From Lachnospiraceae bacterium (GTDB taxonomy: Bacteria; Bacillota; Clostridia; Lachnospirales; Lachnospiraceae), in contig JAEENO010000049.1 in NCBI GenBank assembly GCA_016283755.1, positions 3,342 to 67,341 on the forward strand: a stretch of DNA of 64,000 nt, given 5' to 3'. A model generated the notes under the pieces. That model was not told the origin of the DNA. It worked only from the letters and a program-made list of their open reading frames with translations, and searched no databases. The translations under genes were made by a program, and so were the position numbers. Position 1 is the stretch's first letter, and the number at the start of each line of letters is the position of its first letter. Below are positions 6,773 through 52,866 of the stretch, piece by piece.

Positions 6773-9700
6773 TTATCGCAAAACCGAAAGAGTTACATCT
6801 TCTCCGTTGATCTTCCATTCCTTAACGGAGCCTTCCAACTTATCCTTGGTGATATCAAGTCCCAACACATCGGACTTAATAGCATCACCGTACTTATTGA
6901 AGATATAATCTATCTTGCCTTCTGCCTTATATCCGATATGAATCTTATCCATAACTTCAAAGTCGGCATCCTTACGCATTGTCTGAATCTTGCTTATAAT
7001 CTCACGTACAAATCCTTCATCAAGGAGCTCTTCGGTTAGGTTGCAATCAAGTACAACAGTACATGTATTGTCACTTTCCGTCTGATATCCTTCCATCTGA
7101 GTCATTGTAATCAAAAGATCTTCTTCGGCAAGCTCTGCTTCTCCGTCGCATAACTTAATTACGCCGGTTGAACGAAGCTCTGCCATAGCCTTATTACCGT
7201 CAAGCTCTTTTAGCTCATTCTGGATTCTTCCGAGTAACTTACCATACTTAGGACCTACCGTCTTAAGCTGCGGCTTAAAGGTATAATCCGTATATTCACT
7301 TACATCATCGGCAAATACAACTTCCTTAACATTAAGCTCTTCTGCGATGATATCCACAAAGAACTCAGAAAGCTTATGCTCAACCTTAACATACATCTTG
7401 CCGATCGGCTGACGATTCTTAATATTGGCTGCATTTCTTGCTGCACGTCCCATAACTACTACCTTAAGGACTTCATCCATATTAGCTTCAAGTTCAGGAT
7501 CGATCATTGATTCATTTGCAACCGGGAAGTCACATAAATGAACCGAAATCGGAGCATTACTGTCAATTGAACATACAAGGTTTCTGTAAATCTGTTCTGC
7601 CATAAAAGGAATCATTGGTGCGGATAACTTACATACCGTTACAAGTGCTTCATACAATGTCATGTAAGCATTGATCTTATCCTGCTCCATTCCGTTAGCC
7701 CAATATCTCTCACGGGAACGACGAACGTACCAGTTACTTAAATCATCAACAAACTCCTGTAAAGCTCTTCCTGTCTCCGGGATCTTGTAATTGGCAAGAT
7801 CGTCGTCAACTGTCTTGATAAGAGTATTAAGCTTGGATAATAACCACTTATCCATTACAGGAAGCTTGTCATATTCCAATCTATACTTAGTCGCATCAAA
7901 CTTATCGATATTTGCATAAAGAACGAAAAATGCATAGGTATTCCACAAGGTTCCCATGAACTTTCTCTGACCTTCAGCAACCGCATCACCGTGGAATCTA
8001 TTCGGAAGCCACGGAGCTGAATTGACATAGAAATACCATCTGATTGCATCTGCACCGTACTTTTCAAGCGCTTCAAAAGGATCTACAGCATTGCCCTTAC
8101 TCTTACTCATCTTCTGGCCGTTCTCATCCTGAACGTGACCTAAAACGATTACATTCTCGTATGGTGCTTTATCAAAGAGCAATGTAGACTCTGCCATAAG
8201 TGAATGGAACCATCCACGTGTCTGGTCTACAGCCTCTGAAATAAACTGTGCCGGGAACTGCTGTTCAAATAAATCTTTATTCTCGAAAGGATAATGATGC
8301 TGTGCAAAAGGCATAGCACCCGAATCAAACCAGCAGTCGATAACCTCTGGTACGCGATGCATTTCCTTACCGCAGTCAGGGCACTTTAAGGTAACTTCAT
8401 CAATAAACGGACGATGAAGTTCTACCTTCTTATGCTCCGGATTGCCACTCTTTTCAGCCAGTTCTTCTCTTGAACCGATGCACTCCTTATGACCGCAGTC
8501 ACACTCCCAGATATTAAGAGGAGTACCCCAGTATCTGTTACGTGAAATTGCCCAGTCCTGAATATTCTCAAGCCAGTTACCGAATCTTCCGGAACCTATA
8601 GAATCCGGAATCCAGTTAACAGTATTATTATTCTTAATTAAATTATCTCTTACGGCAGTTTCCTTAATGTACCATGACTCACGCGCATAGTAGATAAGCG
8701 GGCGATCGCATCTCCAGCAATGAGGATACTCATGCTCGAAGTTAGGTGCATCGAATAACTGCTTTCTCTCATCAAGGTCCTTAAGGATAACCTTATCGGC
8801 ATCCTTAACCCACATTCCGGCATATGGTGTCTCTTCTGTCATCTCACCCTTACCGTTAACGAACTGAACGAACGGAAGGTCATACTTCTTACCAACCTTA
8901 TTATCATCCTCACCGAATGCAGGTGCGATATGTACGATACCGGTACCATCTGACATAGTAACGTATGAATCACAGGTTACAAAGAAAGCTTTCTTGCCCT
9001 GCTTATCAGATACCTTCTTCGCACATTCGAATAACGGTTCATATTCCTTATATTCAAGGTCTGTACCCTTAAATGTCGAAAGTACTTCATAAGCCTTGGT
9101 CTCTTCATTGCCCAGCTTACCGAGAACTGTGTCAAGTAAAGGCTCTGCCATATAATATGTGAAGCCGTCGGCTGCTTTTACCTTAACATATGTATCATCC
9201 GGATTAACGCAAAGTGCAACGTTACTAGGAAGTGTCCAAGGTGTTGTCGTCCATACGAGGAAGTATGCATCTTCACCCGCCACCTTAAAGCGTGCAATAG
9301 CAGAACGCTCTTTTACAAGCTTATAGCCCTGGGAGACTTCAGCTGTTGAAAGCGGGGTTCCGCAACGAGGACAATAAGGCACAATCTTAAAGCCCTTGTA
9401 AAGAAGGCCTTTGTTCCAGATTTCCTTTAACGCCCACCACTCGGACTCAATATAATTATTATCATATGTAATATAAGGGTTGTCCATATCGCACCAGTAT
9501 CCTACAGTGCCGGAGAAGTCTTCCCACATTCCCTTATATTTCCATACGGATTCCTTGCACTCTTTAATGAATGGTTCAAGGCCGTAGCTTTCTATCTGAT
9601 CCTTGCCGTCTATTCCGAGCTTTTTCTCGACTTCGATCTCAACAGGAAGACCGTGTGTATCCCATCCTGCCTTTCTCGGAACATACTTGCCCTTCATGGT

Positions 9701-44599: not shown

Positions 44600-44629
44600 T
44601 CAGATATAAAGTATTAAGGAGTGTTGCCA

Positions 44630-44884
44630 ATGCCTGTTCTATCCAGATTCTACGGAATTATCATTAAGATGTACTTCCAACAAGCAGAACATAATCCACC
44701 GCATATTCATGCAATCTATAGTGAAGATACAGCTGCCATCGATATTCAAACAGGTGAAATAATGGAAGGTTTCTTACCACCCAAGGCAATCTCTATGGTC
44801 CGTGAATGGATTACTCTCAATAAAACAGAGTTATTAAATATGTGGGATAGTCAGGAGTTTAAGGCGCTTCCCCCACTTGAATAA
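44630..44884 (+). CDS. DUF4160-family small protein
   Basis: 84-aa ORF, MPVLSRFYGIIIKMYFQQAEHNPPHIHA..., matching the family hallmark RFYG..I.MY....H.PPH.H. Start placed at the ATG at 44630, 8 nt after AAGGAG; the ORF-track start at 44621 is a GTG. Confidence 0.75.
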   Translation: MPVLSRFYGIIIKMYFQQAEHNPPHIHAIYSEDTAAIDIQTGEIMEGFLPPKAISMVREWITLNKTELLNMWDSQEFKALPPLE

Positions 44885-44896
44885 GAAGGTGATCAT

Positions 44897-45334
44897 ATGT
44901 TTCATAAGATACGCGCAGTTAATGCGATTCAGGATTATAAGATAAGTGTTCAATTCGTCGAAGGGGTAACCAAGATTTACGACGTTGAGCTTTTGTTTGA
45001 AAAATGGCCTGCATTCAAGGCTCTTGAAGATAATAAAGAATTATTCTCCGATGTTGAGGTTGATCAAGGAGGATATGGTATATCATGGAATGATGATATT
45101 GATTTATCTTGCGACGAACTCTTTAACAACGGTGTTACTAAGAAGAGCCCGTTTGATGGTCTTATAGCCTTTACAGATGCGACCGAAATGTGGGGATTAA
45201 ATGAAAGTACTCTACGCAAAGCAATTGCTTATGGCAAGCTAATAAACGGCATTGATGCCTGTAAATTCGGAAAGCAATGGGTTATATCAACCGAAGCTAT
45301 GGAACGAGAATACGGCAAGCCACAATCGATTTAA
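44897..45334 (+). CDS. DUF2442-like domain fused to a C-terminal helix-turn-helix (excisionase/MerR-like) domain
   Basis: 145-aa ORF. The N-terminal ~80 aa resemble DUF2442 (the usual partner of DUF4160). The C-terminus ATEMWGLNESTLRKAIAYGKLINGIDACKFGKQWVIS has an HTH pattern. It starts 12 nt after the upstream gene. Confidence 0.65.
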   Translation: MFHKIRAVNAIQDYKISVQFVEGVTKIYDVELLFEKWPAFKALEDNKELFSDVEVDQGGYGISWNDDIDLSCDELFNNGVTKKSPFDGLIAFTDATEMWGLNESTLRKAIAYGKLINGIDACKFGKQWVISTEAMEREYGKPQSI

Positions 45335-45342
45335 TTTACAAC

Positions 45343-45368
45343 ATTACTCATCCTTTTGGATGAGTAAT
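45343..45368 (+). terminator. hairpin after the DUF2442 gene (weak terminator)
   Basis: Perfect 11-bp stem ATTACTCATCC-tttt-GGATGAGTAAT. There is no clear T-run afterwards. Confidence 0.4.
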
Positions 45369-45399
45369 TACAAAACAAGGCTCGGGATTTCAGAGCCTT
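45366..45399 (-). terminator. intrinsic terminator ending the J-domain cluster
   Basis: AAGGCTC-9 nt-GAGCCTT (45377-45399), followed on the minus strand by GTTTTGTAATT. Confidence 0.55.
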
Positions 45400-45830
45400 T
45401 ACTTATCATCCATAAGGATTAATCTTCTTATTATCTCCGCAGCGCGTCTTGCATGTTCCATTTCCTGCTTCTTGGCTTCTCGCTCTTTCTTACGCTCCTG
45501 CTCTTTTTTTACAAGTTCTTCACGCTTCTCATCCATCTGCACTTTATACTGCTTCTCGAAGCGCTCTCGTTCTTTCTTATTACGATTAATATCCGAATAC
45601 CCACCGGGCTTTCCGATGATTCGTCGTGGAAACATCGGCTCATCGCTTTTATTCATAAGATGCTCATATGCCGCACGAATCAGCTCATAGGCTTCTTTTT
45701 TACCCGTAAGCTCATTATCAGGATGATACTTCTTGGCAAGCGCGTGGTAAGCCCTTTTAACTGCTGCCTTATCACGACCATCCTTTAATCCCAATATCTC
45801 CAATGCCTGACTATCCGTCAATACGTACAT
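45399..45830 (-). CDS. J-domain protein with K/E/R-rich charged C-terminal tail
   Basis: J-domain helix II-HPD: AVKRAYHALAKKYHPDN. There is no G/F region and no CxxCxGxG zinc finger. Start placed at the ATG at 45830, 6 nt after AAGAGGA; the ORF-track start is a GTG. Confidence 0.8.
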   Translation of the reverse strand: MYVLTDSQALEILGLKDGRDKAAVKRAYHALAKKYHPDNELTGKKEAYELIRAAYEHLMNKSDEPMFPRRIIGKPGGYSDINRNKKERERFEKQYKVQMDEKREELVKKEQERKKEREAKKQEMEHARRAAEIIRRLILMDDK

Positions 45831-45869
45831 ACATAATCCTCTTACATCCACAAATCGTGGTTGCCGACA

Positions 45870-46430
45870 CTAATTATCCTGATTCACCATACGCTTTACC
45901 GTATTCATCACATATCTCGAATACACGATATAGGCCCTGTCAATAATCAATACCATAACAATGGCTATAACCAGACACAATACGATTTTAAGTGCAAGAC
46001 TTAAATCCGGGAATAATCCGGGCATAAGCGCATCAAGGCCAAACAAATAGAATTCTATAGCGCCCTCTATCACCAGAGGAATAATTAAAGCCCCTGCCTT
46101 GACGCTCCATTCCAATACCGGATTAACACTATTACCGCTTCTTTTCTTTTCAAGGAAAAACTCTTCAGCCAGTACATAAGCTGCACATATTGAATAAGTA
46201 AGGCAATACGTCTTCTTCGGTGCCAGCATAAGTCCGAGCAAAAATGTTGCTGTTCCTGCACTTATTCCATATACGAGATTCGTAACCATCATTACCGTCC
46301 CGATAAAAAAGGCCGCCAACACTATAAAAAACATGGAACTCGTATTAATAACACCGCTTAGAATAAGACATACCACAGCTAATGCTGTAAACAGTCCTCC
46401 TATTGCAACTGCTTTTGCTTTTAGAAGCAT
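45870..46430 (-). CDS. polytopic membrane protein (5-6 TM), family not recognised
   Basis: Hydrophobic 186-aa ORF. Start placed at the ATG at 46430, 10 nt after GGGAGGAG. It overlaps the stop of the upstream J-protein gene by 10 nt. Confidence 0.65.
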   Translation of the reverse strand: MLLKAKAVAIGGLFTALAVVCLILSGVINTSSMFFIVLAAFFIGTVMMVTNLVYGISAGTATFLLGLMLAPKKTYCLTYSICAAYVLAEEFFLEKKRSGNSVNPVLEWSVKAGALIIPLVIEGAIEFYLFGLDALMPGLFPDLSLALKIVLCLVIAIVMVLIIDRAYIVYSRYVMNTVKRMVNQDN

Positions 46431-46831
46431 GAGCAAAGATCTCCTCCCATACATTCGCAACAGGTATCGGCACACCATAACTTACAACACAAATCACAGC
46501 ATCCGTCATCACCGCCGCCGCAACATCCATCATTATTATTCTGTCTGCCATAATTATTGGCATTATAGTCATACTGCTGATTATAAGCATTCTGCTGATT
46601 GTAGTTCGCCTGCTGATAATTGCCTCCGAATCCATTCTTACGCATATTCATTATCTCATCATAAGCTTCAATAACTTCTTCGTACTTCTCTACCGCAAGA
46701 TCCTCTAAAGGATTATTGGTTCCTGCATAATTATCCGGATGATATTTCTTAAGAAGCGCCTTATATGCGCTTTTAATCTCATCATCGCTTGCATTCGGGG
46801 TAACACCCAAAACCTTATACGGATCCTTCAT
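46421..46831 (-). CDS. J-domain protein with Q/N/Y-rich linker and C-terminal cysteine string
   Basis: 136-aa ORF. It has a J domain (DPYKVLGV...IKSAYKALLKKYHPDN), then the linker NYQQANYNQQNAYNQQYDYNANNYGRQNNN, then DGCCGGGDDGCCDLCCKLWCADTCCECMGGDLCSCF (12 Cys in 36 aa). Confidence 0.85.
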   Translation of the reverse strand: MKDPYKVLGVTPNASDDEIKSAYKALLKKYHPDNYAGTNNPLEDLAVEKYEEVIEAYDEIMNMRKNGFGGNYQQANYNQQNAYNQQYDYNANNYGRQNNNDGCCGGGDDGCCDLCCKLWCADTCCECMGGDLCSCF

Positions 46832-47657
46832 TTTTCTTTTTCTCCTTTATACCGTCAAACCTGCTCCAAACGCCTGCGTATATAATATTACGCAATATGT
46901 CACCATATAGAGTGCATGGTAATTTTTCAAAATGATACGCTGCTGCCGCCATTTCATCCTTAAGAATCTTCTCGGCTACCGCATCAAAATCACTTTCATT
47001 ATATATCATTTTAAGAGGATTGTAACGATTTTTCTTAATATCCTCGACAAGATCGTCATACGCATCCATCAAGTATATAAAGCGGCCCAGATGATAACCC
47101 ATCTTGCTTAAATCACCCTTATAAGGGTCATTTCCCTGCACGAACACTTCAGATAAAAGTTCTCCGAAGCAGGCTGCCGCCTTATCCGGTGTATCCTCTG
47201 TCACAGGTTCTTTCTCTATCTTATTTAATTCACCTAAGCACTTTCTGATAGTTTCTGCCTTATCTTCATGTATTCGGCTTAATTTCTTAAATTGATGCTT
47301 ATACAATGCCACACCGGCATGAGCTTTTATACTCTTATCATCCATAACGTCATCTTCGAAGTGAAGATAGGAAAGAATCAGATTAATATCTGCCGCATAA
47401 TCCGTGTAGATATTATGCGCTTCCTTATGCCTTTTCACGGGATTTGCGATACATCTTCTGTTCTTAAAAGAAGTCTCCGGCTCATAAAGCGAAGTAAGAA
47501 GAATTATAATAAACGTACAGTCATACGTTAACGTAATTCTCGACTTTAATCCGCCGCGCGAATCCAACGCTCTGCATAATCCGCAATAGAAACTTCTGTA
47601 TGTAGCATAATCCTTAATCTTAAGTTCCGGTTTAAGTGGTTTAATATATCCAAACAT
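46815..47657 (-). CDS. DUF5685-like protein
   Basis: 280-aa ORF. The N-terminus MFGYIKPLKPELKIKDYATYRSFYCGLCRAL matches my recollection of DUF5685. It overlaps the J-protein gene by 17 nt. Confidence 0.6.
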   Translation of the reverse strand: MFGYIKPLKPELKIKDYATYRSFYCGLCRALDSRGGLKSRITLTYDCTFIIILLTSLYEPETSFKNRRCIANPVKRHKEAHNIYTDYAADINLILSYLHFEDDVMDDKSIKAHAGVALYKHQFKKLSRIHEDKAETIRKCLGELNKIEKEPVTEDTPDKAAACFGELLSEVFVQGNDPYKGDLSKMGYHLGRFIYLMDAYDDLVEDIKKNRYNPLKMIYNESDFDAVAEKILKDEMAAAAYHFEKLPCTLYGDILRNIIYAGVWSRFDGIKEKKKNEGSV

Positions 47658-47729
47658 AAATATCTTCTATCTTTCAGCTTCCATCGTTTTTCTATTGCCC
47701 AAACGATACGCTCGATACAATAATCTTAA

Positions 47730-48419
47730 TCATCTTTTGCCTGCAAACGGACATCTATTACCGATGCACTGATTATTCTTGGCAGAATGGCCGCATATAA
47801 CCTTTCTCTTCTCCATCTTGATTCCAAAGTTTTCTTCCACAAAATCAATTGCGGAAAGTATCGAAAGATAAGAATCTCTCTTGCAGCATCTTGGGCCGCC
47901 GATATCGGCTATCGCATTAAGCGATTTTGCGGTCATCTTATGAGATAACGAAAACGGCTCGTTTGTAAGTGGTGTAGAACCCGATATTATGGACACAAAC
48001 ATACCCGAACTAATTCCCGCGCCACATGCTCCCCAGAAGCCGCAAGCTCCGCCCGGAACGCTTTTACCGCGATTCATCATCTCATTAAGCACTTTGCTTA
48101 AGTCAATATCGCCTCCTGCATTCTTATATGCGGTTAAAAGCGCGGAACCCACCATTACATGATGCTCCGGGCCATGCATATGACAGAACGGCATAGCCAT
48201 CATCTTTTCCATAATCTCAATCGGATCCTTTGATGTCTCACTAAGACATAAGCCTATTATCATATCAAGACCCGCGGTATGGCACTCATTACATACATAA
48301 TGCCCGTTTTCGCATCTTGTTTTGCTTAATTCTTTCTTATGACAGATTTCGCACTCCATCATTTCATCTTCTTCAAGATATATGAGCTTTTCCCCACATA
48401 TAAGACATTCGTCCTTCAT
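47730..48419 (-). CDS. Cys/His-rich putative metal-binding protein (possibly DUF5714-like)
   Basis: 229-aa ORF. It has an N-terminal zinc-ribbon-like CLICG..x17..CEICH..x8..C.NGHYVCNECH, a central FCHMHGPEHH, and a C-terminal C..x9..C...C. Confidence 0.5.
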   Translation of the reverse strand: MKDECLICGEKLIYLEEDEMMECEICHKKELSKTRCENGHYVCNECHTAGLDMIIGLCLSETSKDPIEIMEKMMAMPFCHMHGPEHHVMVGSALLTAYKNAGGDIDLSKVLNEMMNRGKSVPGGACGFWGACGAGISSGMFVSIISGSTPLTNEPFSLSHKMTAKSLNAIADIGGPRCCKRDSYLSILSAIDFVEENFGIKMEKRKVICGHSAKNNQCIGNRCPFAGKR

Positions 48420-48440: not shown

Positions 48441-48719
48441 CTAATATTCATTAATCTTCTCTGCTTTCTCTTTTTCTTCAATAGCGGAAACTCTGTCCGT
48501 TAATGTCGGATGTGAATACTGAAGTTTTACGATTATCGGATCCGGGCTAAGGTTTGAGTAATTACCCCTTGCCAATACTTTAAGTGCACTGATAAGTGCA
48601 GGACCATAACCTTCTTTCACCGCCTGTGCATCTGCTCTATACTCCGCTACTCTTGATCTGTATGACATAAACATTCCAAGTAACGGTGCTATAATCGCAA
48701 ACTCAACACTTAATATCAA
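48441..48719 (-). pseudogene. C-terminal remnant of an M48 (Ste24/HtpX-like) zinc metallopeptidase
   Basis: Only the last ~90 aa are present (SRVAEYRADAQAV...YSHPTLTDRV). The HExxH region is absent, there is no ATG start (TTG only), and the fragment abuts the GNAT gene stop. Confidence 0.6.
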
Positions 48720-49251: not shown

Positions 49252-50337
49252 TTATACCTTCTTATATATTCCGACAAATATCGGCAACTTGGTCTCGGTA
49301 TCCATAATGGCATAGATGAACGGTCTATCAAGTATTACAATTCTTTGTTTCATCATCGGTGCGCATCCACACATCACCATTCCCATGGTAACGGCTGCAG
49401 CCCTTGTACCGTGCCTATCTACTTCTATATGTGCTTTATGGATAATGGAATCGAGCCTTAGCCATTCGGTCGACATCGGTGAAAAATCCGCTGCCGGTGT
49501 AAATACCTTACTTATTCCGAGTTCTTTGCAAATATCGGTCAAATCGGTACCAAAATCATACTTATATTCCGGCATTGTAACCGTAACCTTCTCATCTTCA
49601 GCATTCTTAAAAAGCTCTGAGAAGTCGATTCTTTCTATTATCTCATCCATATTCTTACCTTCATCCGGGAGAATAGCCATAAAAGCATACTTTTCGTCTT
49701 TGTACGGCTTAATAAATCCGGTAAAATCCTTATCTTCTATCCATCCGTACTCGGAACTGTGAAGCATATCAACATTTACCATACTTCCGTCCTCGTTATG
49801 GAATTCTTCCTCGTATATATCTTTTTCTTCGTAAAGATCTTCCCACTCGGCCTCAAATGCAACCGCATTCATAAGACATGCAACAACATCATCCAATGAA
49901 TCACCTACGGCATTCTTAATCATTCCGCGGGTCTTTTCTTCAACCCACTCATTAACGTCTCTTGCCATATCCACTGTAGCAAAAACTTTGCCGTCATAGA
50001 CCTTGGCAAGTCTTTCTTTGTAATCCGTCAAAACCGAGTCCTTGAATTCTTCCTTAACACATACCGCATTAGAAGACATAAGAGAGTCTGACCTATTAGA
50101 GTCTTCATGTATCTTACTTAAGATATCCCTTATATCTTCAAAAGATATCTTATCTCCGAGAACTTTTATAACTTCTTCCCTTGTATCACTTCCGACTGAT
50201 TCTGCCAGGATTCCAAGTAGCATGATTACAGACATAGGGGAAATAATAATGTTCTTTCCTTTATTGCCTGAATTAAGCCTATTTAAAAGTTCCCTCGTTA
50301 TTCTTCCATATTCTTTTTCATAATCCTTGATTTCCAT
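49252..50337 (-). CDS. serpin-family protein (inhibitory-type hinge), no signal peptide
   Basis: 361-aa ORF. It has a serpin N-terminus (NIIISPMSVIMLLGILA), the reactive-centre-loop hinge GTRAAAVT, and the C-terminal DRPFIYAI...PIFVG motif. Confidence 0.85.
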   Translation of the reverse strand: MEIKDYEKEYGRITRELLNRLNSGNKGKNIIISPMSVIMLLGILAESVGSDTREEVIKVLGDKISFEDIRDILSKIHEDSNRSDSLMSSNAVCVKEEFKDSVLTDYKERLAKVYDGKVFATVDMARDVNEWVEEKTRGMIKNAVGDSLDDVVACLMNAVAFEAEWEDLYEEKDIYEEEFHNEDGSMVNVDMLHSSEYGWIEDKDFTGFIKPYKDEKYAFMAILPDEGKNMDEIIERIDFSELFKNAEDEKVTVTMPEYKYDFGTDLTDICKELGISKVFTPAADFSPMSTEWLRLDSIIHKAHIEVDRHGTRAAAVTMGMVMCGCAPMMKQRIVILDRPFIYAIMDTETKLPIFVGIYKKV

Positions 50338-50360
50338 AACTTTTCCACCTTACATCAGTC

Positions 50361-51029
50361 TTATATAATCTTATGCTCTTCATCCATCACTACGATTCTC
50401 GCATCGATTCCATTAATAAGAAGCTCATCATGTGTCGATACGATTATCGTTTTTCCACTGCCATGCAGCATTTTCAATAATTCAATTATACTATCTTTTG
50501 ACGCTCTATCAAGTCCTGAAAGCGGCTCGTCTAAGATAAGGACATCGGGATCAACCGCAAGTATTGATGCTATTGCGACCTTCTTCTTCTCACCACCGCT
50601 TAAATGATAGGGCACTCTTTCCTTAAGTTGCGTTATATTAAGCAATGTAAGACAGTCTGTTACACGCTTTTTTACCTCTTCGTCACATAACCCCATCTGC
50701 ATCGGACCAAATGCCACTTCATCAAATACATTGCCACAGAATAACTGCACTTCCGAATTCTGGAATATATATCCAACCTTCTTATGAAAAAGCTTTGCAG
50801 CCTTTTTATCATTCAGGTATCTATTGTTAATCGCAATTCCTTCAAAGTTGTACTCGCCATACTCCGGATAGATTAATCCCGTCATTATATTAAGTAAAGT
50901 CGATTTTCCACATCCGTTAGGTCCCGTTATCATAACGATCTCGCCCTTCTCAACACTTAGCGAGGCGTGCCTTAAGGCAATTATATCTCCATACGAAAAA
51001 CAAATGTCCTTTAATTCTATATAGCTCAT
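50361..51029 (-). CDS. cbiO: ECF/ABC transporter ATPase (CbiO type)
   Basis: 222-aa ORF with Walker A GPNGCGKST, signature LSGGEKKKV and Walker B LILDEP. It has an ATGA overlap with cbiQ. Confidence 0.88.
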   Translation of the reverse strand: MSYIELKDICFSYGDIIALRHASLSVEKGEIVMITGPNGCGKSTLLNIMTGLIYPEYGEYNFEGIAINNRYLNDKKAAKLFHKKVGYIFQNSEVQLFCGNVFDEVAFGPMQMGLCDEEVKKRVTDCLTLLNITQLKERVPYHLSGGEKKKVAIASILAVDPDVLILDEPLSGLDRASKDSIIELLKMLHGSGKTIIVSTHDELLINGIDARIVVMDEEHKII

Positions 51030-51823
51030 ACTAACCTCTCAAAATAAATAAATAACGCGATAACCGCAATTAAAACCGATAAATATACCGCATCCGTCAA
51101 TGTAAAGCGCTTTTTTCTTAACCGCCTGTACTCGCCGGTAAAACCTCTAAGCATCATTGCATTATATGTAACATCACTTGATTCCTTCGTCTTAATAAAT
51201 AGCGTACCGAGTATTCCTTCAAGCGCTTCGCTTTTATTCCTGTTATGCCCTATCTGCCGCATATTCAATGCGCTCAACATATTATATGCAATATCTCCAA
51301 GCCAGATTATATTCTTAAGCGTTATTTCCAGTATAAATATGAAAATATCAGGCACAAAAAAAGTCTTTAACGCATCCGTTATATAATTCCAGGGGATGGT
51401 AACTGCAAAGACATTAACCATGGAAGCTGAGATAAATACCTTAAGGCTTATAAATATCATACTCTTCGGTGAACCCATGAATGCCGAAGGTATAAGCATA
51501 AGTACCGAGAAAAGTGCGGCAGATATACCGGGTGCAAGGACTTGTACCGCGACCTTACCCGGTACAAAGATCAGACGAACAAGTAAAACTGCGAGCATTA
51601 TATATACGAAAAACATATTCTTTGAAAGTGATATTAAAAGAATAAAAACAAACATAACAAAAAGACGCACAGCAGCGTTACCTCTAAAGGTCACGCCGCC
51701 ATGCATTCTTAATCGTGATAACATAGACAATAGCTTTATAATACTCTTTTTTACATAACTATCGCTATCTTTTTCCGGTATATAGTTATCGGATTGAAGC
51801 ATCCACTCCGGAAGTCTGCTCAT
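51026..51823 (-). CDS. cbiQ: ECF transporter transmembrane (T) component, CbiQ type
   Basis: Polytopic ORF of about 265 aa. Start placed at MSRLPEW (ATG 51823), 5 nt after AGAGGA and 1 nt after the cbiM stop. Confidence 0.8.
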   Translation of the reverse strand: MSRLPEWMLQSDNYIPEKDSDSYVKKSIIKLLSMLSRLRMHGGVTFRGNAAVRLFVMFVFILLISLSKNMFFVYIMLAVLLVRLIFVPGKVAVQVLAPGISAALFSVLMLIPSAFMGSPKSMIFISLKVFISASMVNVFAVTIPWNYITDALKTFFVPDIFIFILEITLKNIIWLGDIAYNMLSALNMRQIGHNRNKSEALEGILGTLFIKTKESSDVTYNAMMLRGFTGEYRRLRKKRFTLTDAVYLSVLIAVIALFIYFERLV

Positions 51824-51824
51824 A

Positions 51825-52808
51825 TTAATCCTCTGCGTACTTTTTCTTATCATGCATAAATGCTGCGATTACCCTGAATAAAATTATCACTATCGCTACA
51901 CCTATTATAGCAGAAAGAATATAAGCTGCAACATCCGGCAAATTGCCAATCGCATAATCAGGCATAATTGTTGACATTTCAAAGCCTGTTTCCATTCCCG
52001 CAGGCGTATATCCTATCATCTCAAGGAATTCTTCAACTCCCCACTCACCCCATGCAGTACCTTCTGCAAGAAGTCCGATCGGAGTAAGTATCATCAAAAC
52101 TGCAAGCACGATAAATGCCGGTTTTGTGATCTTTTCTGTCTTATCAACCTTATAATCAGGCGCATTCTTAAGTACAAATGCATAGATAACTGTTGTAAAC
52201 AAAACCTCGGCAAGACCGAATATAGTAAGATGTCCTATCATCATTGCAGGGATTGCGGTTGTCAGTCCGTAAGGACAATAAAGCGGCTGACCTGCTGCAT
52301 CATTAAACAAAAGCGGCTGGATACCGAATTCAATTGCTGCTGCGAGTGCAGCTGCATTGATTCCAACATAACTTCCGACAGCTGCGCCAATAAGCTCGCC
52401 CTTCTTACCTTCTACCCTATTGGCGATAAGCTTGTAAATCGCGAAACCTACAAATGGTAAAATGAATGCCATATTAAAGCAGTTAGCGCCAAGAGCCAGG
52501 ATTCCTCCATCACCGAACAAAAGCGCTTGTATCAGTAATACAATAGACATCGCAAGGCAGGCAGCCTCCGGTCCAAGTAAAAGTGCGATCAATGTTCCGC
52601 CCACAGCATGCCCGGTCGTACCTCCCGGAAGCGGAATATTAAACATCATACCTACAAAGGAAAATGCTGCACCAAGACCTATTAAAGGCATCTTCTCCTT
52701 TGGTATATTTAATGCTACTTTCTTAATTGATTTTGCCCATACGGGTACCATTGCAGCCCCCATAACTGCGCATGTTGCCGGGGATAAATAATTCTCAGGA
52801 ATATGCAT
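51825..52808 (-). CDS. cbiM: Ni/Co ECF substrate-capture component, CbiM/NikM fused to a CbiN/PDGLE-like C-terminal segment
   Basis: Start placed at MHIPENYLSP (ATG 52808), 6 nt after GGAGGT. The Met-His N-terminus is the metal-binding end in CbiM/NikM proteins. The C-terminal LAEGTAWGEWG segment plus a final TM helix resembles the N component. Confidence 0.85.
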   Translation of the reverse strand: MHIPENYLSPATCAVMGAAMVPVWAKSIKKVALNIPKEKMPLIGLGAAFSFVGMMFNIPLPGGTTGHAVGGTLIALLLGPEAACLAMSIVLLIQALLFGDGGILALGANCFNMAFILPFVGFAIYKLIANRVEGKKGELIGAAVGSYVGINAAALAAAIEFGIQPLLFNDAAGQPLYCPYGLTTAIPAMMIGHLTIFGLAEVLFTTVIYAFVLKNAPDYKVDKTEKITKPAFIVLAVLMILTPIGLLAEGTAWGEWGVEEFLEMIGYTPAGMETGFEMSTIMPDYAIGNLPDVAAYILSAIIGVAIVIILFRVIAAFMHDKKKYAED

Positions 52809-52820
52809 GTTATAACCTCC

Positions 52821-52866
52821 AAGTAATAAAATAAGGGTACAGACTTTCATCAGAAAGTCTGCACCC
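52821..52866 (-). terminator. strong intrinsic terminator inside the cbiM leader (candidate attenuator/riboswitch expression platform)
   Basis: Minus-sense GGGTGCAGACTTTC-tgat-GAAAGTCTGTACCC (14 bp, one G-U pair), followed by TTATTTTATTA. It ends 5 nt before the cbiM RBS. In the plus sense the same position is an A-C mismatch. Confidence 0.65.

Follow-up and report, generated by a model that had tools for sequence, protein, structure and literature searches.

What is the function of the DUF5685 protein, and what ties its gene to the overlapping genes that follow it in a 64,000-nucleotide stretch of Lachnospiraceae DNA (contig JAEENO010000049.1, positions 3,342 to 67,341; the whole stretch is called the window below)? 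DUF5685 is a large uncharacterised family found in many dominant human-gut Lachnospiraceae and Oscillospiraceae. An earlier note on the window had found no assigned function for it, and this still holds, as the sole paper that we found merely lists the name. The same note proposed that four genes, encoding DUF5685, a cysteine-string J protein (J-Cys), a polytopic transmembrane (TM) protein and a second J protein (J2), form an Hsp70-linked membrane module. Our analysis supports that reading in part: the linkage is conserved but the four-gene unit is not. The conserved unit appears to be DUF5685 together with a cysteine-rich tail.

The four open reading frames (ORFs) occupy 45399-47657 on the minus strand in the order DUF5685, J-Cys, TM and J2, and a terminator follows (Table 1). 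The DUF5685 protein scores 320.6 bits with PF18937 (gathering score 26.7), and the match covers residues 1-268. J-Cys starts 17 nt ahead of the DUF5685 stop codon and consists of a J domain with the HPD motif, a Q/N/Y-rich linker and an acidic cysteine-string tail of the kind that we call type A (...CCDLCCKLWCADTCCECMGGDLCSCF). The protein ends in ...CECMGGDLCSCF, with 12 Cys among its last 36 residues. The TM gene, counted from its ATG, overlaps the end of J-Cys by 10 nt, its ribosome binding site (RBS) lies inside the codons of the cysteine tail, and J2 begins after a gap of 39 nt. These overlaps, the gap and the RBS are where the earlier note had placed them. ORF finders lengthen the TM gene upstream (window 46431-46478; 202 aa; 'MYGRRSLFM...' in relatives). 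We rejected this extension as the true N-terminus, for it is merely the +2 frame of the conserved CECMGGDLCSCM codons.

Both J proteins contain KKYHPDN and pass the PF00226 cut-off of 27.8 bits (55.7 for J-Cys and 43.5 for J2). Neither reached the cut-off of any DnaJ, CbpA or DjlA model (46.8 bits against 377 for TIGR02349; 34.9 bits against 403 for CbpA), and neither has a CxxCxGxG finger or a DnaJ_C or DnaJ_CXXCXGXG Pfam match, which agrees with the claim that they are not canonical DnaJ or CbpA proteins. The matches of J-Cys to solved structures are confined to the J domain, and the tail has none. The gene arrangement is far beyond chance, because the order, the 10-nt ATG/stop overlap and the in-tail RBS are repeated in dozens of species-level genomes. 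The genes are co-ordered and translationally coupled, in line with the co-expression inferred in the earlier note.

The DUF5685 family is large: an indexed search gave 6096 clusters at 90% identity and an exhaustive search gave 6354 clusters at 50% identity (E<=1e-3). We fetched relative loci (labelled L with a number), including 80 reference loci from species-level genomes, all Lachnospiraceae-like. J-Cys was scored as present when DUF5685 was followed by an ORF that encoded a J domain and 5 or more Cys among its final 45 residues. Four of the 80 loci were left out, as the contig ended within 460 nt of DUF5685. J-Cys followed DUF5685 in 75 of the 76 assessable loci, and the sole exception (L036) carries a foreign, mobile-element-like insertion after DUF5685 (6831-9500). 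Clustering of the neighbouring ORFs gave four recurrent families, namely DUF5685, J-Cys, the TM protein and a small zinc-ribbon membrane protein; nothing else was conserved in the flanks of the 80 loci. Most J-Cys proteins have about 200-250 aa and contain a tetratricopeptide repeat (TPR) between the J domain and the tail, which is swapped for a Q/N/Y-rich linker in the 136-aa J-Cys of the window and in 7 of the 80 reference loci. In L035, L071 and L077 a gene for a membrane protein of about 440 aa with 9 TM segments stands between DUF5685 and J-Cys, and the J-Cys/TM overlap is intact.

Remote members were sought by tblastn in a plasmid collection that also covers secondary replicons and, in some cases, records of chromosome size filed as plasmids. 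Pusillibacter faecalis (30% DUF5685 identity) carries genes for an RseC-family membrane protein, DUF5685 and a J-TPR-Cys protein with a hydrophobic tail (TPR_2 E=2.5e-7), and its DUF5685 and J genes overlap by 4 nt. Subdoligranulum variabile (29% DUF5685 identity) carries DUF5685, J-TPR-Cys and an overlapping gene for a 190-aa TM protein that is homologous to the TM family of the window (E=6e-17). Since both belong to the Oscillospiraceae, the two- and three-gene modules span two clostridial orders. These results bear out the conserved co-occurrence on which the earlier note had made its proposal depend. J-Cys was also found 3' of DUF5685 in 64 metagenome loci; the single-protein scan gave close Pusillibacter relatives only, and because these loci are closely related to one another they add little independent evidence.

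The cysteine tails fall into two types. Type-A tails share the motif TGNxCCDL(W)x(A)Dx(L)CECMGGDLCxCx, and their net charge is -4; at most of their 26 positions the residue is invariant in 46 of 47 genomes. Six Cys are conserved, Trp occurs at position -18 in 34 of the 47 tails, and 45 of the 47 end in C-x-C-X with Cys at -4, an end found in type A only. Type-B tails follow the pattern CMKLCLANMxCNLCCPGGG..CC. They are neutral, and their median Kyte-Doolittle value of 1.56 is nearly that of a TM helix. The median number of Cys in the last 30 residues of J-Cys relatives is 7. By BLAST and hidden Markov model (HMM) searches, the TM gene (about 185 aa) follows J-Cys in all 47 type-A loci and in none of the 28 type-B loci. 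Throughout type A the TM start and the J-Cys stop share the identical 10-nt overlap, and the RBS codons within the tail are repeated. Position -3 of the tail is S, P, A or T because an NCA codon is needed for the overlapping TM ATG (NCA TGC). Most type-B loci (21) have a small zinc-ribbon membrane protein 5' of DUF5685, at a gap of 2-50 nt; it has about 136 aa, an N-terminal membrane hairpin and a C-terminal CPxC...CPxC motif. Small membrane proteins in this position include L009 5554-5964, those of 20 further type-B loci and L084 4586-4996. The same position upstream of DUF5685 is taken in Pusillibacter by the RseC-family protein, which also carries a Cys motif. The membrane theme of the earlier note holds, and its four-gene module does not, since the TM gene is tied to type-A tails alone and J2 has no orthologue in the 80 reference loci.

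The TM protein was modelled by AlphaFold2 (AF2) with six helices (pLDDT 84), which settles the previous estimate of 5-6 TM segments at the upper figure. None of the 36 members of its family that we scanned matched any Pfam or NCBIfam family, including the S-component families of energy-coupling factor (ECF) transporters, and a Pfam assignment was thus rejected. The top 4 Foldseek matches of the model were chains of TmRibU, a riboflavin S-component (probability 0.92-0.99, TM-score 0.5-0.58, E=0.2-0.6), and these were its only high-probability matches. No EcfT or EcfA gene was found in the cluster. We regard the resemblance of the predicted structure to an ECF S-component as a weak lead and not as an assignment.

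Outside Clostridia the cysteine-rich tail is part of DUF5685 itself. All five non-clostridial DUF5685 proteins that we analysed, from Actinomycetota and Bacteroidota (Nocardia sp. PE-7, N. farcinica, Nonomuraea gerenzanensis, Tsukamurella tyrosinosolvens and Chondrinema litorale), carry a fused C-terminal tail with 8 to >18 Cys, for example CCERFDCSGYECCGNCGNCCSCCSGEDGGCGCDGCSCGCD, and they score 66-98 bits with PF18937. Clostridial DUF5685 proteins have no such tail. The annotation shows no J-domain neighbour for Nocardia sp. PE-7, Chondrinema and Tsukamurella, and no J domain was found among the scanned flanking ORFs of Nocardia sp. PE-7, Nonomuraea and N. farcinica; the genes around the fused proteins are unrelated to one another, and the actinobacterial neighbourhoods gave no hint of a function. 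A hydrophobic stretch often stands just ahead of the fused tail, which suggests membrane association of the fused forms. In the actinobacterial loci L085, L088 and L089 such a stretch precedes a Cys/Asp/Gly-rich tail, e.g. GGLLSMVCAALTCCTCGLY. Fusions of DUF5685 with a J domain were sought among the long members of the family and rejected, as the extra length consists of low-complexity loop insertions. Because the tail is fused in lineages without a J domain, the cysteine string appears to be tied functionally to DUF5685 and not to the J domain. The primary partnership would be that of DUF5685 with the cysteine string, and recruitment of Hsp70 a clostridial addition.

For DUF5685 an AF2 model was built from a 20-sequence alignment. 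The model (pLDDT 91.6, pTM 0.89) is all-alpha except for one beta-hairpin at residues 63-81. The best 50 Foldseek matches in the PDB were all trans-isoprenyl diphosphate synthases (trans-IPPS), 4GP2, 3LMD and 9KUQ among them, with probability 1.0, TM-scores of 0.55-0.60 and a best E of 1.6e-3. DUF5685 is thus predicted to adopt the class I isoprenoid-synthase (trans-IPPS) fold. Across Clostridia, Actinomycetota and Bacteroidota the invariant residues are G3, C25-G-x-C28, C69, D102, D106, D198-A, D202, D206 and N213. Two long helices, 83-107 and 180-208, bear D102-x3-D106 and D198-x3-D202-x3-D206, respectively, at their C-terminal ends, with i/i+4(/i+8) spacing. This placement may correspond to that of the Mg2+-binding motifs of class-I isoprenoid enzymes. 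Neither this fold nor the fused cysteine tail without a J domain had been noticed in the earlier note.

These results led us to a tentative reading, possible though short of probable, that the cysteine tail is modified, or anchored at the membrane, by DUF5685 with the help of a prenyl diphosphate, and that DnaK is brought to this site by the J domain. DUF5685 would be a divergent class-I isoprenoid enzyme, as suggested by the predicted fold and by the Asp motifs and N213 in the alignments. It would bind the prenyl diphosphate through Mg2+ and move the prenyl group onto the thiolates of the tail, possibly aided by a metal at C25/C28/C69. The lipidated or hydrophobic tail would then bring its protein to the membrane. 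In Clostridia the tail is on a separate J-(TPR)-Cys protein, so that the J domain would recruit and activate DnaK at that site; this Hsp70 role is assigned because of established J-domain biology, and the J domain with its HPD is seen in the protein. Type-A acidic tails might dock onto the S-component-like membrane protein, with which their translational coupling and co-occurrence are observed, and type-B hydrophobic tails might insert with no TM partner. J2 would have joined recently, as an accessory co-chaperone within the clade of the window. In its most specific form, the proposal is that DUF5685 is a new protein prenyltransferase on the class-I isoprenoid-synthase fold, an enzyme for the S-prenylation of cysteine strings that would act in cis in Actinomycetota and Bacteroidota and, on the clostridial J protein, in trans; this we hold to be somewhat unlikely. 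The J-Cys module may, by analogy, be a candidate bacterial counterpart of lipid-anchored cysteine-string chaperones.

Several observations weigh against prenylation of the tail. The fold assignment comes from a predicted model with a Foldseek E of about 1e-3. No significant match of DUF5685 was found to PF00348, PF00494, terpene synthases or any Pfam family besides DUF5685, even at E<=10, an HMM search against PDB sequences gave noise only, and hhalign against profiles of E. coli-type farnesyl diphosphate synthase gave a probability below 0.1, which is not significant. With these three negative results we rejected homology at the sequence level to IPPS, squalene synthase and terpene synthases. 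Because there is no link in sequence, the Asp motifs are not matched residue by residue to the first and second Asp-rich motifs (FARM and SARM). We found no precedent in the literature for endogenous Cys-prenylation of a bacterial protein. A folded or metal-binding motif, or a specific docking peptide, would suit the near-invariant 26-residue type-A tail better than a loose string for lipidation would, and acidic Cys/Gly-rich tails resemble those of metallochaperones. Self-lipidation alone would have no obvious purpose in the fused actinobacterial proteins. Finally, the split between type A and type B needs about three changes on the DUF5685 tree, so that few independent events underlie the perfect correlation of tail type with the TM gene.

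The data are compatible with thiol prenylation and with metal binding alike. An alternative which we consider unlikely, though it is the strongest of the rivals, is that the module handles metal or Fe-S clusters, the cysteine tail loading or exchanging metal with a C25/C28/C69 site of DUF5685. In Clostridia, DnaK would drive transfer or release through the J domain, in the manner of HscB/HscA and IscU, and the S-component-like protein would supply or receive the metal or a substrate. The three Cys of DUF5685 that are invariant across phyla support this alternative, as do the acidic Cys/Gly-rich tails with their CC, CxC and CxxC motifs and near-invariant type-A spacing. The upstream partners of type B are small membrane proteins with Cys motifs (the zinc ribbon, and the RseC-family protein in Pusillibacter), and a tail fused to the enzyme in Actinomycetota suits a built-in cofactor or delivery module. 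On the other hand, the isoprenoid-synthase fold and the invariant Asp motifs are left unexplained by metal handling, neutral type-B tails of near-TM hydrophobicity are unusual for metal binding, and none of the four proteins is matched by a known metal-trafficking family.

It is also conceivable, but quite unlikely, that J-Cys works as a class C J protein tethered to the membrane and that covalent chemistry plays no part. The cysteine tail would serve as an anchor to the membrane or to a partner, with a function like that of DjlA, and DUF5685, having retained an old enzyme fold, would act as a client, regulator or scaffold. J proteins anchored in the membrane are established, DjlA being one; the type-B tails are hydrophobic and the type-A tails have a TM partner of their own, and the TPR in most J-Cys proteins suggests docking between proteins. 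This explanation is weakened by the acidic motifs, whose invariance across three phyla argues for retained catalysis or metal binding, and by the fusion of the cysteine tail to DUF5685 where there is no J domain, which makes the link independent of Hsp70.

Very improbable, in our view, is a pathway like those of ribosomally synthesised and post-translationally modified peptides, in which DUF5685 modifies the tail and the tail is cleaved and exported or sensed through the membrane protein, as with ComQ and ComX. The enzyme gene overlapping a gene with a C-terminal peptide and followed by a membrane protein gene mirrors comQ-comX-comP, and the 26-residue tail is conserved to an extreme degree. 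A folded J domain with TPR would nevertheless be an odd leader peptide, and no conserved protease, ABC exporter, kinase or regulator lies nearby. Moreover, pheromone peptides differ between strains whereas the cysteine tail is near-invariant, and in Actinomycetota the tail is fused to the enzyme. Adjacency of overlapping housekeeping neighbours with no common function, for which one could cite flanking genes and a promoter region that are not conserved (the latter between close relatives), is hardly credible and is effectively refuted by the comparative data, given the adjacency in nearly all assessable loci, the conserved overlaps, the covariation of tail type and TM gene, the occurrence in two clostridial orders and the domain fusion in other phyla.

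To place tail prenylation among known systems we compared the module with those that share parts of its layout. The comQ and comX genes overlap, and in the module likewise the gene of an IPPS-like enzyme is adjacent 5' of the putative acceptor gene (here by the 17-nt overlap), with a membrane gene after it. ComQ, which has the IPPS fold, prenylates a residue near the C-terminus of the peptide of the adjacent gene, and comQ adjoins comX with the membrane protein gene next (PMC5331326). A preprint on the structure of StheQ, from the StheQ/StheX system, provides the same precedent (10.64898/2026.08.29.745113). Unlike ComQ, DUF5685 has no detectable similarity to polyprenyl synthases or to ComQ (no PF00348 match). 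The ComX acceptor is Trp, whereas in the type-A tails Trp is only partly conserved and six Cys are conserved. ComX is a pheromone precursor, and the carrier here is a folded J-domain co-chaperone. ComQXPA also has the ComP/ComA pair, whereas the module has none and no kinase or regulator is conserved nearby.

The cysteine-string protein (CSP) of animals, CSP alpha or DNAJC5, is anchored to the membrane through lipidated cysteines. Like DNAJC5, J-Cys starts with an HPD-bearing J domain, continues with a linker and has a dense cysteine string, and the type-B strings are hydrophobic like those of CSP. J-Cys is not its orthologue: the J domain of DNAJC5 ranked 32nd among the PDB J domains (E=7e-6), so that J-Cys stands no nearer to DNAJC5 than to other J proteins in this domain, and the J-Cys string is at the extreme C-terminus and is acidic in type A. 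CSP is S-palmitoylated by DHHC enzymes, whereas the partner in the module has an isoprenoid-synthase-like predicted fold; to our knowledge, DHHC enzymes are lacking in bacteria. DjlA is a class C J protein, and J-Cys would similarly bring DnaK to the cytoplasmic membrane. DjlA is composed of an N-terminal TM helix, a TerB-like domain and a C-terminal J domain, in contrast to the N-terminal J domain of J-Cys, and it has neither a Cys tail nor a DUF5685 partner; its model NF006948 gave 42.4 bits against a cut-off of 162, over the J domain only.

A likeness to the farnesylated class A J proteins Ydj1 and DNAJA1 and to CaaX processing is seen in the Cys at -4 of type A and in a Ste24-like M48 metallopeptidase gene that lies upstream in the window's clade. 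The module contains no alpha or beta subunits of farnesyltransferase or geranylgeranyltransferase, position -3 is dictated by the overlapping TM ATG, and type-B and fused tails have no CaaX end. The M48 gene was rejected as a CaaX-protease partner, as neither the 80 reference loci nor the remote loci have it and the window retains a 92-aa pseudogene fragment of it. The TM protein resembles the ECF S component TmRibU in size (about 185 aa) and in its six predicted helices, but it matches no S-component family and no EcfT or EcfA accompanies it. J-protein-driven cofactor transfer is an established idea, and HscB-IscU, SlyD and HypB likewise join a chaperone or co-chaperone with a Cys-rich acidic metal-binding element. 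Homology to HscB_C, IscU, SlyD or HypB was not found, and the isoprenoid-synthase fold is unaccounted for by that comparison.

The module is outside the ComQXPA, DjlA, class A/B DnaJ, CSP/DNAJC5, CaaX and ECF families, as it lacks a defining feature of each. By analogy, its closest working likeness may be a class C J protein that is targeted to the membrane and joined with a ComQ-like pair of enzyme and substrate, in a design that would converge on animal CSP. A large survey of J proteins recognised DnaJ-TPR architectures, and not the Cys tail or the DUF5685 partner. Our literature searches found nothing relevant on a bacterial cysteine-string J protein or on bacterial Cys prenylation, and no description of the DUF5685/J-Cys module.

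An isoprenoid-diphosphate enzyme fold working with a cysteine string is the first concrete testable hypothesis for DUF5685. If the tail is prenylated, bacteria would have a route to protein Cys-lipidation that is unrelated to the eukaryotic CaaX and DHHC machinery. S-prenylation would make this the first endogenous bacterial system for protein cysteine prenylation, with DnaK tethered to the membrane in convergence with animal CSP. If the tail instead binds metal, the module would be a new J-protein-assisted metal-delivery system. Either outcome would give a function to three families that are now unnamed or of unknown function.

Table 1. Features of the DUF5685 locus and its flanks, in window coordinates.
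Feature	Coordinates	Strand	Remarks
DUF4160 + DUF2442/HTH_59 pair	44621-45334	+	convergent with J2; between J2 and ispF
Intrinsic terminator	45343-45399	-	GC hairpin and U tract UUGUUUUG, then a second, perfect 11-bp hairpin
J2, second J-domain protein	45399-45830	-	143 aa from ATG 45830; PF00226 E=3.4e-11; K/E/R-rich tail
TM gene (membrane protein)	45870-46430	-	186 aa; ATG 46430, stop 45870; with type-A tails only
J-Cys	46421-46831	-	136 aa; PF00226 E=5.3e-15
RBS of TM gene, GGGAGGAG	46441-46448	-	inside the M-G-G-D codons of the cysteine tail; 10 nt 5' of the ATG
DUF5685 protein	46815-47657	-	280 aa; Pfam PF18937 E=1.1e-95
Spacer 5' of DUF5685	47658-47729	-	72 nt
DUF5714 gene, Cys-rich	47730-48419	-	Pfam E=6e-72; partial similarity to the metal-binding selenoprotein MbdU
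M48 remnant, Ste24-like metallopeptidase	48441-48719	-	C-terminal 92 aa only

J2 appears to be a lineage-specific addition of the window's close relatives, outside the conserved core. It is 82-92% identical in L081, L171, L172 and L173 and keeps to the block even where the flanks differ. An orthologue was found in none of the 80 reference loci and not in L174, whose DUF5685 is 55% identical, and J2 was rejected as a core member. The earlier note had called J2 unrelated to J-Cys; the J domain is common to both, and nothing else is shared. The terminator that the note had placed after the set is indeed there, as two hairpins, and its RNA fold has a free energy of -25.5 kcal/mol (z=-7.1 against shuffles). 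A simple scanner missed it because its loop has 9 nt. It may be active both ways and serve the convergent gene too.

Block 45343-47672 is 91% identical to L081, and both flanks differ. In the spacer upstream of DUF5685 a scan gave no convincing promoter or terminator. In blastn synteny blocks the homology to L081 begins just 15 nt before the DUF5685 ATG, so that no conserved promoter is visible. Because the spacer is this short and has no clear terminator, read-through or co-transcription from DUF5714 into the cluster may occur. Compared with the close relative L081, the MbdU-like DUF5714 gene occupies an indel; none of the 80 reference loci has it, and we rejected it as a part of the module. 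In relatives a full M48 gene (339-410 aa) stands immediately 5' of DUF5685, and its product has the N-terminal domain PF16491 (L081 7449-8468; L172 2506-3738). The window copy is a pseudogene remnant, since the ThiF gene and the HExxH-bearing part of M48 have been lost.

The proximity of ispF and ispD was considered as a link to an isoprenoid pathway and treated as chance, as it is seen in the window clade and Pusillibacter only and ispF occurs in none of the 80 reference loci. The DUF4160/DUF2442 pair is present in the window and in L172 and missing in L081 and L173; the two genes resemble a small mobile cassette, which may be toxin-antitoxin-like. The module itself appears to be neither a defence system nor phage-borne: PADLOC gave a single hit below threshold (E=0.0035), and IMG/VR contained no relative of the module. 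In L171 (3290-5350) the four-gene block lies in another genomic context and is followed by a gene for a 686-aa large serine recombinase, which hints that the block can move. Beyond the M48 remnant, the window encodes a bacterial serpin of 361 aa adjoining genes for a CbiM/CbiQ/CbiO-type cobalt ECF transporter (49252-52850, minus strand), and this region is syntenic with L081 at about 72% nucleotide identity.

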